Source: a virus | Direction: 5' to 3' (one strand) | Virus record (IMG/VR): IMGVR_UViG_3300027708_000024 | Length of the DNA stretch: 64,000 bases | Shown: positions 46,157-52,437 of the stretch, piece after piece | Layout of the letters: every line of letters begins with the position of its first letter | Numbering within the stretch: the first letter of the stretch is position 1 | The notes under the pieces: model-generated | Told to the model about the DNA's origin: nothing | Database searches by the model: none | Seen by the model: only the letters and a program-made list of their open reading frames with translations | Translations under genes and position numbers: made by a program

Positions 46157-46580
46157 ATTTGTTAATGCATATATGAAAGTTGCGGAAACGTTTGCAGAAC
46201 TTTCATCAGCAAGACGCCTTCATGTTGGTGCGGTTATTGTAAAAGATGACCGCATCATTTCTATTGGATATAATGGTACACCAACTGGTTGGGATAACAA
46301 TTGCGAAGATGAATTTCTATCTGAAGATGGTAGTTTCATGTTGAAAACTAAACCAGAAACCCTTCATGCAGAAACCAATGCAATTGCTAAGTTAGCAAAA
46401 TCTACAGAATCTGGTGATGGTGCTACTCTTTTTGTTACTCATGCACCATGTTTAGATTGTGGTAAACTTGTATATCAAAGTGGAATTCGTACAGTATTTT
46501 ATCGTAATGAATATCGTGATACTAGAGGAATTGAGTTTCTAAAAAAAGCAGGCGTTACAATAGAAAAAATAAATACTTAA
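46146..46580 (+). CDS. cd: dCMP deaminase
   Basis: GYNG; HAETNAI; PCLDC. Confidence 0.92.
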   Translation: MKTKFVNAYMKVAETFAELSSARRLHVGAVIVKDDRIISIGYNGTPTGWDNNCEDEFLSEDGSFMLKTKPETLHAETNAIAKLAKSTESGDGATLFVTHAPCLDCGKLVYQSGIRTVFYRNEYRDTRGIEFLKKAGVTIEKINT

Positions 46581-46626
46581 CTGGATAATGCATATTTGAA
46601 ATCGGAGTGATTTTAAGGAAACCAAG

Positions 46627-47133
46627 ATGCGTATACAGGTATTTAATTGTCCTGATAAAGAGTTCAAACCTTACATTATTGATGCTGTTGAATTTTATAG
46701 TCAGTCTTTATTTTCTAATAAGATGTTAGAATCAGACTTGAATATTAAAATCAAATTTAATAGTAAATTGACTGTTTATGGTTACGCATCAATTATTGGA
46801 TACAACAAATCGAAGAAAGCCAGAAAATTTTTAATCGAACTGCATCCAGGTATTGGTTCTAGAAGAATACTGGAAACATTGGCACATGAGATGGTTCATG
46901 TAAAGCAGTTTGCATACAATGAGACTAATGAAAAATTAAGCAGATGGAAAGGCACAAAAATCAATCCTGAGCAGGTAGATTACTTTGACCATCCTTGGGA
47001 AATAGAAGCATACGGTAAAGAAGTTGGATTGTTTACCAAATATGCCATACATAATCAATTGTGGCATGTGTTTAGTGATATCAGAAATCCAGATGATCCG
47101 ATAGAAATTGGCAAGATTAATTGGAAAATGTGA
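46627..47133 (+). CDS. Zincin-type metallopeptidase-like protein
   Basis: LAHEMVHVKQ...HPWEIEA. Confidence 0.75.
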   Translation: MRIQVFNCPDKEFKPYIIDAVEFYSQSLFSNKMLESDLNIKIKFNSKLTVYGYASIIGYNKSKKARKFLIELHPGIGSRRILETLAHEMVHVKQFAYNETNEKLSRWKGTKINPEQVDYFDHPWEIEAYGKEVGLFTKYAIHNQLWHVFSDIRNPDDPIEIGKINWKM

Positions 47134-47150
47134 TAAATTTATTAACTTTT

Positions 47151-47168
47151 TGTTGTTTTTTTACAACA
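47151..47168. promoter_or_regulatory. Palindromic operator-like motif TGTTG-N8-CAACA
   Basis: 6 nt upstream of the -35 at 47175; second copy at 47696-47713. Confidence 0.55.
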
Positions 47169-47174
47169 AAACCC

Positions 47175-47203
47175 TTGACTTTATAAAAAAAATACTATAT
47201 AAT
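47175..47203 (+). promoter_or_regulatory. Sigma70-type promoter of the leader-tRNA operon
   Basis: TTGACT-17-TATAAT. Confidence 0.85.
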
Positions 47204-47236
47204 AGCAGAATATTAAATTTTAACTGAAAGAAAAAA

Positions 47237-47332
47237 ATGTTGTCCTTACATAAACCCACAACCAGTCAACCAGGATATCGCACAATTAATTGCGGCGAAG
47301 CGTCATGGTTTGCCTTCGGGGTTCGTGTATAG
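47237..47332 (+). CDS. Putative attenuator leader peptide (31 aa) MLSLHKPTTSQPGYRTINCGEASWFAFGVRV
   Basis: ATG 47237, TAG 47330-47332, GAAAG SD-like at 47226-47230; 30 distinct codons; 3' end complementary to the terminator 5' arm. Confidence 0.7.
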   Translation: MLSLHKPTTSQPGYRTINCGEASWFAFGVRV

Positions 47333-47357
47333 ATAGTAAAAGTTAAACTCTAAACAC

Positions 47358-47388
47358 AAGACCCCTAATCAAAAGTTAGGGGTTTTTT
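47358..47388 (+). terminator. Attenuator terminator preceding the tRNA array
   Basis: GACCCCTAAT-CAAAA-GTTAGGGGTT with T6 tract, 12 nt before tRNA-Ser. Confidence 0.85.
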
Positions 47389-47400
47389 GTTTGTAGTTTT

Positions 47401-47490
47401 GGAAGTGTGCCAGAGTCCGGTTTATTGGAACAGTCTTGAAAACTGTCGTATCGAAAGGTACCGTGAGTTCGAATCTCACCGCTTCCGCCA
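47401..47490 (+). tRNA. tRNA-Ser(TGA)
   Basis: GGAAGTG/CGCTTCC acceptor; ACAGT-CTTGAAA-ACTGT; long variable arm; encoded CCA. Confidence 0.93.
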
Positions 47491-47498
47491 GATTAACT

Positions 47499-47592
47499 GG
47501 AACATTGGCCGAGTTGGTCTAAGGCACTTTCCTGCTAAGAAAGCATCGGGTCAAAAACCTGATCGTTGGTTCGAATCCAACATGTTCCGCCA
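47499..47592 (+). tRNA. tRNA-Ser(GCT)
   Basis: GGAACAT/ATGTTCC; CTTTC-CTGCTAA-GAAAG; long variable arm; CCA. Confidence 0.93.
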
Positions 47593-47601
47593 AAGTTTCA
47601 T

Positions 47602-47677
47602 GTACAGGTGGTCTGAGTGGTTAGGCGGCAGGTTGCAACCCTGTCCTATGCAGGTTCGATTCCTGTCCTGTACTCCA
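47602..47677 (+). tRNA. tRNA-Cys(GCA)
   Basis: GTACAGG/CCTGTAC; GCAGG-TTGCAAC-CCTGT; U73; CCA. Confidence 0.9.
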
Positions 47678-47695
47678 GTTGCAAAAATAGTAACA

Positions 47696-47746
47696 TGTTG
47701 TATAAAAACAACAGCGCTTGACAAAACGATTAATTGGTAGTATAAT
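47696..47746 (+). promoter_or_regulatory. Palindrome plus consensus sigma70 promoter
   Basis: TGTTG-TATAAAAA-CAACA, then TTGACA (47718)-17-TATAAT (47741). Confidence 0.85.
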
Positions 47747-47748
47747 TG

Positions 47749-47930
47749 TTTCTGTTGAGTTGATAAACAAACGGAAATAAACGATCCGTCTCCCTAGTGG
47801 AGTTTAGCAAGGGTTTGGTGTGGTAATGACTTCGGCACCATGTAACAGTCAGTTCCTTGTTAGTTTTCGATCAGATGGTAGGTAACTACCCAATGGTTGT
47901 AGGTGACGATGGGCTTTATAGGAACCTTCA
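47749..47930 (+). ncRNA. Candidate structured ncRNA 1
   Basis: Nested helices with a 5-bp pseudoknot and a GNRA hairpin; no credible ORF; first product of the 47718 promoter. Confidence 0.5.
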
Positions 47931-47939
47931 AGAGTTTAT

Positions 47940-48014
47940 GCACCGTTCGTCTATCGGTTAGGACACTGCCCTTTCACGGCGGTAAGAGGAGTTCGATTCT
48001 CCTACGGTGTACCA
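47940..48014 (+). tRNA. tRNA-Glu(TTC)
   Basis: GCACCGT/ACGGTGT; CTGCC-CTTTCAC-GGCGG; CCA. Confidence 0.92.
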
Positions 48015-48017
48015 TAT

Positions 48018-48246
48018 TGAAACACATTACTAAGAGTCCAGGTTCAGAGCGTGGCATAGTGTGTTTCACTATGTTAGACTTGAGTTGTGGCAAGTATAGT
48101 CCACAAACAGGAGTGTAACCTGATGAATACAGAACATAAGTATTCAACGTGATGAGCCATTTTTGACCGTGGGATTTAGGCAAGAAACACATAATAAAAC
48201 GGCAGACGTAAAACACGACTACAATCGTCTAGGTAGTCAATTTTTT
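48018..48246 (+). ncRNA. Candidate structured ncRNA 2
   Basis: 12-bp hairpin, four further stems and a 3' H-type pseudoknot followed by a T tract. Confidence 0.5.
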
Positions 48247-48266
48247 AACTGATAATGGAGATACAC

Positions 48267-48455
48267 ATGAGTAAAGTTTACTTGGGTCGTTTCAATCAGT
48301 ATAAAGTCGGTACTAGAACTGCTACTGGCATGAAAGAAGCAAAGTTCTATCAACGTGGTTATAAATTACTTAGTGGTAAAGAATACAAGATCAAAAAATT
48401 AAATAAGATTGTGCAAGTATGGCACGATATCGATGAAGGTTTTATTGTAGTATAA
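48267..48455 (+). CDS. Small basic hypothetical protein
   Basis: SD GGAG, ATG at 48267. Confidence 0.6.
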   Translation: MSKVYLGRFNQYKVGTRTATGMKEAKFYQRGYKLLSGKEYKIKKLNKIVQVWHDIDEGFIVV

Positions 48456-48462
48456 AGTCTAT

Positions 48463-48538
48463 TGCCTTGTAGCTCAGTCGGTAGAGCAGGTGACTGTTAA
48501 TCACCCTGTCGTTGGTTCGATCCCAACCTCTGGAGCCA
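48463..48538 (+). tRNA. tRNA-Asn(GTT) with mismatched acceptor stem (possible pseudogene or chimera)
   Basis: Canonical D, anticodon (GGTGA-CTGTTAA-TCACC) and T arms, G73, CCA; acceptor TGCCTTG vs CTCTGGA forms only 3 of 7 pairs. Confidence 0.75.
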
Positions 48539-48577
48539 CTTTTAAGTTTACAGTGTACTAGTTTTAAGTTTACAATT

Positions 48578-48652
48578 CTCGGTGTGGTGTAATTGGCAGC
48601 ACCACGGTCTCCAAAACCGTTAGTTGCGGTTCAAATCCGTACACCGAGGCCA
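48578..48652 (+). tRNA. tRNA-Trp(CCA)
   Basis: CTCGGTG/CACCGAG; ACGGT-CTCCAAA-ACCGT; CCA. Confidence 0.92.
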
Positions 48653-48660
48653 AGTTTATT

Positions 48661-48734
48661 GCGGGATTAGTTTAATGGTAAAACTAGAGATTTCCAATCT
48701 TTCGTCATCAGTTCGATTCTGATATCCCGCTCCA
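48661..48734 (+). tRNA. tRNA-Gly(TCC)
   Basis: GCGGGAT/ATCCCGC; AGAGA-TTTCCAA-TCTTT; U73; CCA. Confidence 0.92.
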
Positions 48735-48751
48735 TCAATTTAAGGAATGTT

Positions 48752-48991
48752 ATGCGACCATTGAATGATAATATTATAGTTGAACGAATTGAAAAAGAGA
48801 ATGTTACTAGTTCTGGTATTCTTTTGAAATCTAGTGATGAAGCAGACAAAGCAAAAGTTACTGCTATTGGATCTGATGTTGTTGATGTCAATATTGATGA
48901 TATTCTATTGATCAATTGGAACAAAGCAAGAAAAATCTCTGACAACATCTATCAAGTAAACATTGAAGATGTTATTGGTGTATTTGAATAG
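48752..48991 (+). CDS. groES: Co-chaperonin GroES (Cpn10)
   Basis: MRPLNDNIIV...TSSGILL...AKVTAIG. Confidence 0.85.
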   Translation: MRPLNDNIIVERIEKENVTSSGILLKSSDEADKAKVTAIGSDVVDVNIDDILLINWNKARKISDNIYQVNIEDVIGVFE

Positions 48992-49012
48992 ATACTGTAA
49001 GGTCTAGTAAAT

Positions 49013-49087
49013 CTGCCCGTAGTTAAATGGATATAACACTAGCCTTCTAAGCTTGCGTTCCAGGTTCGATTCCTGGCGGGCGGACCA
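49013..49087 (+). tRNA. tRNA-Arg(TCT)
   Basis: CTGCCCG/CGGGCGG; CTAGC-CTTCTAA-GCTTG; CCA. Confidence 0.9.
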
Positions 49088-49129
49088 AATATTAAAGTGC
49101 ATAAATATATACTTTAAAGGACAGTCATA

Positions 49130-49435
49130 ATGAACTACTTAAAAGCAGTATTTTTGGCTGTACTATGCACATTCTATGCAGTATCCTACGCCGCAGCACC
49201 TATTCCTTTCGATTTTGAAAAACCAGTAAAGTGCGCCAAGACGGTGGAATTACTTGAGTATTTTGAAAGTGAATATGGTGAAACAGTAAAGTGGTTAGCA
49301 AAAGATGGATCGTCAGATTCATATTTCGCAGTTTTGATGAATGATAACAAACTCACATGGACTATCATGCAGTTTGACACCGAAGTTGCTTGTGTACTAG
49401 GTACTGGAAAACAAGTAAAATTAACTCATCTATAA
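49130..49435 (+). CDS. Secreted/periplasmic hypothetical protein
   Basis: N-terminal signal peptide (VSYA-A); Cys pair; CATAAATA late promoter at 49100-49107. Confidence 0.7.
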   Translation: MNYLKAVFLAVLCTFYAVSYAAAPIPFDFEKPVKCAKTVELLEYFESEYGETVKWLAKDGSSDSYFAVLMNDNKLTWTIMQFDTEVACVLGTGKQVKLTHL

Positions 49436-49441
49436 ATCAAT

Positions 49442-49516
49442 CGCAGGATAGCGCAGCGGTAGAGCACCGGACTCATAATCCGGAGGTCGAAGGTTCGATT
49501 CCTTCTCCTGCAACCA
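49442..49516 (+). tRNA. tRNA-Met(CAT), initiator-like
   Basis: C1:A72 mismatch, G2-C71, C3-G70, A73; CCGGA-CTCATAA-TCCGG; CCA. Confidence 0.88.
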
Positions 49517-49538
49517 TCACATTCTCACCAAAAAATAC

Positions 49539-49567
49539 TTGCAACCTGCAATGGGTTGTGTTATAAT
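49539..49567 (+). promoter_or_regulatory. Sigma70-type promoter for the DNA polymerase operon
   Basis: TTGCAA-17-TATAAT with TG extension. Confidence 0.75.
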
Positions 49568-49597
49568 TATTGAACTTGAGATTATTTAGGAGACATC

Positions 49598-49909
49598 ATG
49601 ATTTTGATATTTAAATTGACAACCGGAGAAGAAGTTCTCGGTGAAATGGTTAATGCCACATTGGGTGATTTTTATTATTCGATTAAAAATCCAGTCGCCG
49701 TTGCAGTTGTTCGTGGTAAAGATGGACAACCTAATGTAGGATTTGCTCCATTCCCAATACACTCAGAACAGAAAAAAGATTTCACTATTGACATTCCTAG
49801 AGAGCATGTAGTATACTCATATACTCCTGCTGAAGATTTTATTAATAATTACAATCAAATCTTTGGTTCTGGTATCGTGCTTCCATCTAAACAACTGATA
49901 ACTGGTTAA
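49598..49909 (+). CDS. Conserved Sm-like hypothetical protein upstream of gp43
   Basis: IFKLTTGEEVLG...YNQIFGSGIVLP. Confidence 0.75.
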   Translation: MILIFKLTTGEEVLGEMVNATLGDFYYSIKNPVAVAVVRGKDGQPNVGFAPFPIHSEQKKDFTIDIPREHVVYSYTPAEDFINNYNQIFGSGIVLPSKQLITG

Positions 49910-52437
49910 TGTCAAACTTCTATACGAATGTTCAAACTTCAGGTAACTATATTCTATATCGTGGTATTCTTGACGGTAAACGTGTCAAACAACGTATAGA
50001 ATATTTTCCTACATTATATGTGCCTTCTAAGAAGGTCACAAAATTCACTTCTCTGCAAGGTGAATATCTTGATGAAATCAAGCCTGGTGGTCTAAGAGAC
50101 GCAAGAGAGTTTATTAAAAGTTACGAACACGTTGATAATTTTCGTATCTTTGGAAACACCAGACATGAGTATTCTTTCATCGCTGATCAACACACTACCG
50201 ATGTTGATTGGGATCAATCACTAATTCTAACAGCAATCATTGATATCGAGGTTGGATCAGAAAATGGATTCCCGCATCCAGAAACTGCATCTGAACCAAT
50301 TACTGCAATCTGTCTCAAATACGTTGGTGGTATAACTTATGTTTTTGGTTGTGGTGATTACAAAGTACAAGGTAAAGAAATCTATGTACAATGTAGAGAT
50401 GAAGCAACACTCATCAAACGGTTTATAAAAGTATGGACAGAAAACTATCCAGATATCATCAGTGGTTGGAACATTAAGTTCTTTGACTTTCCATATATCA
50501 TTAATCGGATTCGTAAAGTTCTAGGTGAAGATGATGCAAAAAAACTTTCACCATGGAACTATATTGGCACACGCAAAGCAATTCTGATGGGTAAAGAACA
50601 CACCGTTTATGATATGAATGGTGTTGCAATGTTAGACTACATCGAACTATATCGTAAATATGCTCCTGGTGGTGCATCACAAGATTCATACAAGTTGGAT
50701 AATATTGCATCTGTAGAGATTGGTCAGAATAAAATTTCTTATGATGAATATGATTCATTGTATGACTTGTACAAACTAAACTATCAAAAGTTTATTGAGT
50801 ACAACATCAAAGACGTTGAGTTGATTGAGAAGTTGGATGATAAACTGAAATTGTTTGAGTTGGCACTAACTCTTGCCTATGATAGTAAAACTAATTTTGA
50901 TGATGTGTTTGCACAAGTTCGTATGTGGGACGTTTTGATTTACAATCACTTGCGTGAGCGTGACATTATTATTCCACCATCAGGTAACAATCGTAAAGAC
51001 GAAGCATATGAAGGTGCATATGTCAAAGACCCACAAGTTGGAATGCACAAGTGGGTAGCATCGTTTGACTTGAATAGTCTGTACCCACATTTGATTATGC
51101 AGTACAATATAAGTCCTGAGACTTTAATTGAACCAGAAAACTACACAGACACACACAGAGACATTTTGGCACAAGGTGTTGATGTAGATGCATTGTTGAA
51201 AAACAAAGTTGATCTAAGTCAATTATCTGCATCTACCATCACACCTAATGGTCAATTCTTCAGAACAGACATTCAAGGTTTTCTTCCTGCAATGATGGAG
51301 AAGATGTATGAAGATCGAAAAGTCTACAAGAAGAAATCAATCGATGCAAAGAAAGCACTTGAGTTGGAATCAGATCCAACTAAACGATATGAAATTGAAA
51401 AGCGTGTTGCTCGGTATAATAACTTGCAACTTGCAAAAAAAGTTTGTTTGAACTCTGCTTATGGTGCTCTTGGTAATCAATTCTTCAGATTCTTTGATGT
51501 ACGACAAGCAGCAGGTATTACATTATCTGGTCAGTTATCTATCCGTTGGATTGAAAACAAGTTAAATGACTACATGAATAAACTGTTAGGTACAAATGAC
51601 GATTATGTCATTGCATCTGATACCGATTCGATCTACTTGAAACTTGGTCCACTCATTGATAAATTTGTAAAAAATAAAGATGCAAAACAAACAGTCGAAG
51701 TGATGGATAGAATTTGTGAAGAAAAGATTCAACCATTTATCGATAAGTCATATGAAGAACTAGCATCGTATGTTCATGCATCTTCTCAGAAGATGCAAAT
51801 GAAACGTGAAGCACTTGCAGACAAAGGTATCTGGACTGCAAAGAAACGTTATATTCTCAATGTCTATAACAACGAAGGTGTGCAATATGCAACACCACAA
51901 AAGAAAGTCATGGGTCTTGAAATGGTGAAGTCATCAACACCCGCAGCAATTCGTGAGAAGATGGGTCAATCGATTGATATTATGATGAATGGAACTGAAG
52001 ATGAATTACATGAATTCATCGATAAATTCCGTGATGAGTTTAGATCGTTACCACCTGAAGAAATTTCTTTCCCACGTGGAGTAAATGGCATAACGCAATA
52101 TAGTGACAAGTCTGCATTATATAAGAAAGGCACACCAATGCATGTTAAGGGTGCAATACTATATAATCACTATCTGAAAGAAAAAGGATTAACAAAGAAG
52201 TATCCAGAAATTAATGAAGGTGAGAAAATCAAGTTCGCCTATCTAAAGCAGCCAAATCCATTTCAATCAGAAACCGTAATTGGTTTCCCTGTCAGACTTC
52301 CAAAAGAATTTGAATTGGAAGATTATATTGATTATGAAACACAATTTGAGAAAGCATTCATTGATCCAATTACTGTTGTTTTAAACTGTATGGGTTGGAG
52401 TGCAGAACGTAAGAATTCAATATTCGATTTATTCTAA
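49909..52437 (+). CDS. gp43: Family B DNA polymerase
   Basis: DIEV exonuclease; SFDLNSLYP; KVCLNSAYG; SDTDS; KKRY; no intein or intron. Confidence 0.97.
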   Translation: MSNFYTNVQTSGNYILYRGILDGKRVKQRIEYFPTLYVPSKKVTKFTSLQGEYLDEIKPGGLRDAREFIKSYEHVDNFRIFGNTRHEYSFIADQHTTDVDWDQSLILTAIIDIEVGSENGFPHPETASEPITAICLKYVGGITYVFGCGDYKVQGKEIYVQCRDEATLIKRFIKVWTENYPDIISGWNIKFFDFPYIINRIRKVLGEDDAKKLSPWNYIGTRKAILMGKEHTVYDMNGVAMLDYIELYRKYAPGGASQDSYKLDNIASVEIGQNKISYDEYDSLYDLYKLNYQKFIEYNIKDVELIEKLDDKLKLFELALTLAYDSKTNFDDVFAQVRMWDVLIYNHLRERDIIIPPSGNNRKDEAYEGAYVKDPQVGMHKWVASFDLNSLYPHLIMQYNISPETLIEPENYTDTHRDILAQGVDVDALLKNKVDLSQLSASTITPNGQFFRTDIQGFLPAMMEKMYEDRKVYKKKSIDAKKALELESDPTKRYEIEKRVARYNNLQLAKKVCLNSAYGALGNQFFRFFDVRQAAGITLSGQLSIRWIENKLNDYMNKLLGTNDDYVIASDTDSIYLKLGPLIDKFVKNKDAKQTVEVMDRICEEKIQPFIDKSYEELASYVHASSQKMQMKREALADKGIWTAKKRYILNVYNNEGVQYATPQKKVMGLEMVKSSTPAAIREKMGQSIDIMMNGTEDELHEFIDKFRDEFRSLPPEEISFPRGVNGITQYSDKSALYKKGTPMHVKGAILYNHYLKEKGLTKKYPEINEGEKIKFAYLKQPNPFQSETVIGFPVRLPKEFELEDYIDYETQFEKAFIDPITVVLNCMGWSAERKNSIFDLF

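Follow-up and report, generated by a model that had tools for sequence, protein, structure and literature searches.

The window, a stretch of 64,000 nt from the genome of an uncultured T4-like phage, carries at the head of its tRNA array a cassette of about 190 nt that is probably a ribosome-mediated leader-peptide transcription attenuator and that would report on the decoding of all amino acids. The cassette consists of a promoter, a short open reading frame (ORF) and an intrinsic terminator, and it is conserved in more than 120 uncultured T4-like phage contigs. Its geometry is the known geometry of leader-peptide attenuators; what sets it apart is the complete sampling of the amino acids instead of codon runs, and the tRNA genes as the target.

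All features of the cassette lie on the plus strand. Transcription is predicted to start from a sigma-70-type promoter, P1 (TTGACT-17-TATAAT, 47175..47203), which matches the consensus at 11 of 12 positions and is kept as TTGMCA-17-TATAAT in 36 of 46 elements under a strict pattern. A purine-rich, Shine-Dalgarno-like GAAAG (47226..47230) is placed 6 nt 5' of the ATG of the leader ORF, which comprises 31 codons (47237..47332) with 30 distinct codons and 19 amino acids, Asp being the one missing. Folds divided the leader into the segments of an attenuator. Segment 1, the 5' part of the ORF (47240..47257), pairs with segment 2 in ribosome-free RNA; a central hairpin inside the ORF, with UAUCGC and GCG on its two sides, occupies 47265..47313. 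Segment 2, which comprises the final four codons and the stop codon plus 4 nt on its 3' side (47318..47336), pairs with either segment 1 or segment 3, and segment 3, which contains the terminator flank and 5' arm (47348..47366), is the antiterminator partner of segment 2. The intrinsic terminator (3:4, 47352..47392) has a GC core at 47360-47383, an A-tract/U-tract extension and a T run; the stem proper spans 47358-47386 and is followed by the T run, and the A/U pairs lengthen it to 47352-47392. Genes for tRNA-Ser(UGA), tRNA-Ser(GCU) and tRNA-Cys(GCA) follow at 47401..47677. No promoter-like site was found in the window between the terminator and tRNA-Ser, and since the next one does not occur before 47718, these three tRNA genes are accessible only by read-through of the terminator. 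A preliminary description of this DNA had placed the promoter, the ORF, the terminator and the start of tRNA-Ser (47401) exactly where we found them.

The gene upstream of the cassette (46627-47133) encodes a 168-aa HExxH protein that belongs to PHROGs of unknown function and weakly matches SprT-like/WLM, at a score under the Pfam cut-off. An Rfam scan of 46500-50000 at E values up to 1 returned only tRNAs and one chance, terminator-like match to NsiR1, which was rejected at 21.7 bits against a cut-off of 39. An inverted repeat read from the sequence, TTGTTGT/ACAACAA (47150..47169, plus strand), adjoins the -35 box of P1 on its 5' side and could be an operator or a weak hairpin. The same motif (TGTTGT...ACAACA) is also present 5' of the second promoter of the window (47696-47713), and in relatives it recurs, conserved, after the attenuator terminator and next to the -35 box of early promoters.

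The window phage has a GC content of 35%, a DNA polymerase about 51% identical to those of cyanophage T4-likes, and no cultured close relative. More than 560 relatives of the upstream 168-aa gene are present in IMG/VR, and a leader profile located the cassette directly 3' of this gene in 45 of the 80 loci fetched. A pattern search internal to the ORF, and thus independent of gene context, detected the cassette in 79 further viral loci. A blastn search with the window leader and a type-B leader against 50,697 GenBank phage records gave no match. The pattern scan of bacterial and archaeal genomes returned at least 120 matching stretches, and no fetched locus fitted the profile of the element; the cellular matches are therefore regarded as chance, with no cellular copy among the matches listed.

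The pattern of variation among the relatives suggests that the leader ORF is translated. Homologous loci were checked for loss of the ORF, as the preliminary description had proposed, and the frame was open in every copy (41 of 41 distinct ORF sequences, compared with 6 of 41 for the +1 frame and none of 41 for the +2 frame). Differences between related pairs numbered 334, 337 and 560 at codon positions 1, 2 and 3, respectively, so that third positions differed 1.7 times as often as first or second positions, and insertions and deletions in the leader ORF kept the frame. The start codon was ATG, GTG or TTG in the homologues, and it either had GGAG, GGAAG or GAAAG in front of it, spaced as in the window, or was located 6 nt 3' of the -10 box, which implies a leaderless mRNA. 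Four representative leader peptides had no Pfam or PHROG match at E values up to 0.1.

The amino acid content of the leader peptides was highly unusual. All 20 amino acids were present in 43 of 68 distinct peptides and 19 in 16 more (25-44 aa, median 35, initiator counted as Met), and several peptides of only 31 residues were complete (e.g., L004:4591-4683 and L118). For any one peptide, a complete set would be expected by chance with a probability of about 1e-4 to 1e-3; in windows of real genes of these phages, complete sets occurred at frequencies of 7e-5 (31 aa) and 1.4e-3 (36 aa). When the columns of the peptide alignment were shuffled, the mean number of distinct amino acids was 17.65 ± 0.17 compared with the 19.18 observed, and the number of complete peptides averaged 2.3 with a maximum of 8 in 5000 shuffles compared with the 20 observed. 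In a simulation of neutral decay, only 0.1-4% of the leaders derived from complete ones were still complete at 20-30% divergence. Column shuffling and neutral decay together show that shared ancestry does not account for the completeness, and these comparisons indicate that it is maintained by selection. Residues lost at one site of the leader reappeared at another; between the window and L004, codon 5 changes from His to Arg and codon 15 from Arg to His, an exchange of positions. Codon runs were absent, and the 19-20 different amino acids held by the leaders resemble the 19-20 covered by the arrays. One leader subfamily contained only 16-18 amino acids.

This 16-18-amino-acid subtype, with 30-aa leaders (L052, L034, L037, L049, L067, and L061), has leaderless starts and lacks Ala, Gly and usually Gln. 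In this subtype the terminator abuts the first tRNA gene and the arrays do not open with tRNA-Gln. Codons for the visible tRNAs make up 0.48-0.62 of its leader codons compared with 0.30-0.50 in genes, values that refer to truncated arrays.

The preliminary description had proposed that synonymous codons are sampled in the leader and that the phage tRNAs are represented among them. Codon diversity in the window leader was indeed high when checked against genome usage (P of about 5e-6 for 30 distinct codons in independent draws), and 30 distinct codons were reached in none of 15,533 real 31-codon windows of the window's long ORFs. It also exceeded that of shuffled sequence, with P = 0.0024 when the ORF was shuffled with its dinucleotides preserved. 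With the peptide sequences taken as fixed, the codon diversity of the leaders was 1143 compared with 1060 ± 10 expected from genome usage. Synonymous sampling as a selected trait did not survive, as it is confounded by a leader GC3 of 0.39 vs. 0.29; because third positions of the leaders are GC-richer and less AT-biased, synonymous diversity was not counted as evidence. Codons for eight of the nine phage tRNAs do occur in the window leader, as had been pointed out, but their presence is uninformative since cognate codons account for 27% of leader codons and for 25% of the codons in the phage genes. A match between leader codons and phage anticodons was not borne out, with no enrichment overall (0.47 vs. 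0.43 expected) and a hint of enrichment for tRNA-cognate codons only in the 16-18-amino-acid subtype and in L060, whose arrays are truncated. Comparison of the relatives strongly supports the core of the proposal, a leader ORF whose sampling of the decoding repertoire is linked to a switch ahead of the tRNA genes; sampling at the level of codons and the anticodon match found no support.

Alternative pairings consistent with a terminator/antiterminator switch were detected throughout the family. RNAalifold applied to a MAFFT alignment of whole elements recovered the terminator and nothing else; because insertions and deletions in the ORF break this alignment, per-sequence folds, duplex energies and an anchored sub-alignment were used. 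The antiterminator of the window joins 47317-47334 to 47348-47366 with an energy of -18.4 kcal/mol, and this 2:3 duplex beats 99.8% of background 45-nt windows. A 2:3 duplex was present in all 44 distinct elements (-13 to -25 kcal/mol), each beating at least 98% of background windows, and all 44 had an intrinsic terminator. Segment 3 is composed of an A-rich flank and the C run of the terminator 5' arm. The stop codon and the end of the T run were 57-69 nt apart in 43 of the 44 distinct elements and 78 nt apart in L019; the tails of the ORFs vary. Duplexes between cognate partners were more stable than those between permuted partners, with means of -18.5 vs. -15.4 ± 0.36 kcal/mol for 2:3 and -19.8 vs. 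-17.6 ± 0.46 kcal/mol for 1:2.

The arms of these structures co-vary. In the anchored sub-alignment, on which 2:3 covariation was scored, both sides change in 6 of 11 pairs, and the score was above those of all 500 shuffles and of all slid controls. An exchange of G-C for A-U in 2:3 between L017 and L015 bears specifically on the antiterminator, since the same position is mismatched in the terminator form. The covariation score of the terminator was 0.189, compared with 0.121 ± 0.009 in shuffles. The mutually exclusive antiterminator and terminator that had been proposed for the window are predicted across the family, with the pairing found in all 44 distinct elements. The short ORF and the position of its stop codon, which the preliminary description had suggested looking for ahead of the tRNA arrays of related phages together with co-varying arms, were likewise conserved there.

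The ORF itself folds into one long imperfect hairpin in every homologue, formed by the 1:2 pairing around the central hairpin, with a mean z-score of -2.3; the z-score of the whole leader was -4.6. The central hairpin survives symmetric, in-frame insertions and deletions of three codons in relatives. Residues that appear conserved in the peptides (Tyr-Arg/His, Cys, Asp, and Trp) coincide with the helices of the ORF hairpin, and the nucleotides of segment 2 are conserved though the reading frame across it differs in L017 and L015. Both observations suggest that much of the peptide conservation reflects constraint on the RNA.

Constrained folds distinguished three states: the free RNA forms the ORF hairpin and the terminator, a ribosome in the middle of the ORF leaves the antiterminator, and a ribosome at the stop codon leaves the terminator. 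In several members, among them the window, the terminator is thermodynamically the more stable of the two structures, and the switch must then be assumed to be under kinetic control. On average, 16.5 of the 19.1 amino acids of a leader occur where an A-site stall leaves segment 2 free. This stall-effective zone is itself diverse, containing for example 19 amino acids in 25 codons (P = 5e-5). In the usual case Val lies inside segment 2 and Trp just 5' of it, and because Val usually comes too late in the leader a simple stall model cannot sense it.

These states suggest how the cassette may work. P1 would start a short mRNA whose 31-codon ORF holds almost every amino acid. When no ribosome is present, the ORF would fold into its long hairpin, 1:2 around the central hairpin, and the terminator 3:4 would form. 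A ribosome that translates smoothly would reach the stop codon and cover segment 2, and the terminator would form again. A ribosome delayed within roughly the first 23 codons would keep segment 1 off segment 2, and segment 2, thus freed, could pair with segment 3 as it emerges from the polymerase, with the result that no terminator forms and transcription would continue into the tRNA genes. With nearly all amino acids represented in the leader, transcription of the tRNA genes would increase whenever almost any one of them is decoded slowly. We infer from these predicted folds that translation of the leader controls termination and that the response runs in this direction. As the composition of the leader mirrors that of the array, the arrangement would close a feedback loop and provide homeostatic control of decoding capacity.

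The tRNA genes behind the cassette are consistent with such a relationship. A tRNA array was found 3' of the cassette wherever enough sequence follows, and in these loci the arrays provide for 17-20 amino acids. In five near-complete relatives (157-180 kb), 23-27 tRNAs for 19-20 amino acids are located behind a single cassette, which holds the only GGG-plus-T-run site in a region of 8-11 kb. Because the arrays of relatives supply tRNAs for 19-20 amino acids, the complete leader seems to have its counterpart in a complete tRNA set. Within the cassette family the window phage is a reduced form: its array has 9 tRNAs for 8 amino acids behind a leader with 19 amino acids, and the match between leader and array has been lost with this reduction. 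The ninth of these tRNAs (anticodon GTT, Asn; 48469-48528) scored 48.3 bits with the Rfam tRNA model and was missed by ARAGORN. The gap between the T run and the first tRNA is 2-14 nt, with no promoter in it, in the window and about ten other subtypes. In the remaining relatives this tRNA begins about 90 nt past the T run, and a second consensus promoter precedes tRNA-Gln; a promoter between the terminator and tRNA-Gln was found in roughly two thirds of the relatives. Where this bypass promoter is present, the gate may control only part of the transcription of the array, or the cassette may be autonomous.

A leader that reports on nearly all amino acids could also serve surveillance of the host tRNA pool, in which depletion or cleavage of almost any tRNA would stall the leader ribosome and induce the complete tRNA set of the phage. 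Counter-defense had been proposed in the preliminary description, and we regard this role as speculative and unlikely. Starvation, host shut-off or an anticodon-nuclease defense might, speculatively, be the cause of such stalls, and the cassette would then act as a general inducible counter-measure. A leader matched to a complete tRNA set is a simpler rationale than counter-defense, since the arrays of relatives supply 19-20 amino acids.

Sensing of individual aminoacyl-tRNA supply is not the only function that this architecture would permit. An identical arrangement could report general coupling between ribosome and RNA polymerase, with the availability of ribosomes, the progress of host shut-off or the stage of infection as possible signals and with a varied peptide that merely avoids bias. 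A general sensor of this kind would fit the location of Val, and often Trp, where a stall could not free segment 2, as well as the leader codons that are not matched to phage anticodons; avoiding bias, however, does not require completeness, which is kept against decay and parallels the complete tRNA sets of the relatives, and we consider the general sensor rather improbable. The question whether the leader is a translated sequence at all arises from its structure, as the long ORF hairpin and the z-scores of the ORF and of the whole leader would suit an untranslated structured RNA, either a small RNA or a processing element, that has its own terminator and in which the ORF is incidental. Such an RNA would be very hard to reconcile with a frame that stays open in all diverged copies while the other frames are closed, with third positions that vary most, with in-frame insertions and deletions and with conserved start signals; amino acid completeness would be meaningless for it, and no Rfam family matched.

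Alternatively, the cassette might be a small gene in its own right, complete with promoter and terminator, whose 25-44-aa peptide or terminated RNA acts in trans and whose position reflects gene order. Many relatives do have a separate array promoter right after the terminator, and the loci of the first search were all found through the same upstream gene, so that synteny was to be expected among them. Trans-acting attenuator RNAs and leader peptides are known, such as rnTrpL/peTrpL (bioRxiv 10.1101/606483). A role of the peptide itself would nonetheless leave unexplained why about 35 residues contain all 20 amino acids, the seemingly conserved positions are those of RNA helices, and the frame across segment 2 differs in L017 and L015. 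A product acting in trans would also leave unexplained why the 3' end of the ORF co-varies with the 5' arm of the terminator, the representative peptides matched no Pfam or PHROG family, and in the window and about ten other subtypes the tRNA follows the T run closely, with no promoter. We judge an independent gene to be improbable. An attenuator that reports on decoding and acts in cis on the tRNA array remains the reading that we prefer.

Several known systems resemble the cassette in part. The classical attenuators of E. coli and Salmonella (trpL, hisL, leuL, and pheL, and the multivalent thrL and ilvL) share with it a short leader ORF followed by an intrinsic terminator, four segments with 1:2, 2:3 and 3:4 pairings, and a stop codon placed so that the terminating ribosome masks segment 2. 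They differ in that regulatory codons there occur in runs, whereas here nearly every amino acid occurs once or twice, and in that they control biosynthetic enzymes, while the phage cassette precedes tRNA genes; there is no sequence homology. By analogy of function, the nearest precedent is the upstream ORF (uORF) of whiB7 in mycobacteria, for which experiments showed that the starvations sensed follow the residues present in the uORF (PMC10274678). In M. smegmatis this uORF lacks only Cys (PMC10274678). As in the phage cassette, a longer and varied uORF is followed by a Rho-independent terminator, which is read through when ribosomes stall on the uORF (PMC10274678). The whiB7 uORF is, however, enriched in Ala, varies between species and is often several amino acids short, and completeness was not reported as a conserved trait (PMC10274678). 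It is chromosomal, occurs in actinobacteria, controls a transcription factor and is not homologous to the phage cassette; assignment of the cassette as a whiB7-type attenuator was rejected given the tRNAs downstream, a peptide that is not Ala-rich and a phage genome with a T4-like DNA polymerase.

The toiL uORF of the E. coli topAI-yjhQ operon is likewise a multipurpose sensory uORF in which the position of the stall changes the downstream RNA structure (PMC12121999). In contrast to the cassette, it acts by occlusion of a ribosome-binding site and by Rho-dependent termination, it was characterized with the aid of antibiotics, and the operon encodes a toxin-antitoxin system (PMC12121999). T-box riboswitches are similar in being cis-acting terminator/antiterminator switches that report the state of tRNA, but they bind uncharged tRNA directly, do not need translation and control synthetase or amino acid genes. 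A T-box was rejected for the cassette, as there was no Rfam T-box match at E values up to 1. A full-text literature search found no account of attenuation of tRNA genes or of a conserved leader containing all amino acids.

Phage tRNA genes are usually viewed as constitutive, either supporting codon usage or replacing host tRNAs that have been degraded. To our knowledge, essentially nothing is known of how their expression is controlled. The cassette suggests that tRNA synthesis in the phage is probably tuned to the ease with which ribosomes decode. If this is correct, the cassette would be the first case described in which attenuation controls tRNA genes, and a natural sensor of overall decoding capacity. 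With its portable-looking sigma-70-type promoter and intrinsic terminator, the cassette could serve as a reporter of translation stress. Completeness kept in a peptide of 31-44 residues is also an uncommon form of selection for a coding sequence to be under.

Differences between close relatives were also seen around the cassette. In L001, whose upstream protein is 99% identical to that of the window, the cassette and the genes for tRNA Ser-Ser-Cys are both absent (L001:4495-4881 vs. window 47134-47940), and this joint absence suggests that the cassette and the first tRNAs are gained or lost as one block. Between the second promoter of the window (47718-47746) and tRNA-Glu lies an RNA-like sequence of about 180 nt (47747-47926) with a UUCG-type hairpin, for which we found no credible ORF and no Rfam match. 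This segment is absent from L001, where the promoter leads almost directly into tRNA-Glu. A sister clade carries a different unit at the position of the cassette (L035:4518-4640; L013, L018, L032, L046, and L050). Its first elements are a consensus promoter and an RNA of about 75 nt, without an Rfam match, whose terminal stem is GCGG/CCGC and whose 3' end, UCCA, is like that of a tRNA acceptor. The unit continues with a Lys-rich ORF of 54-58 aa, which is followed by tRNA-Thr.
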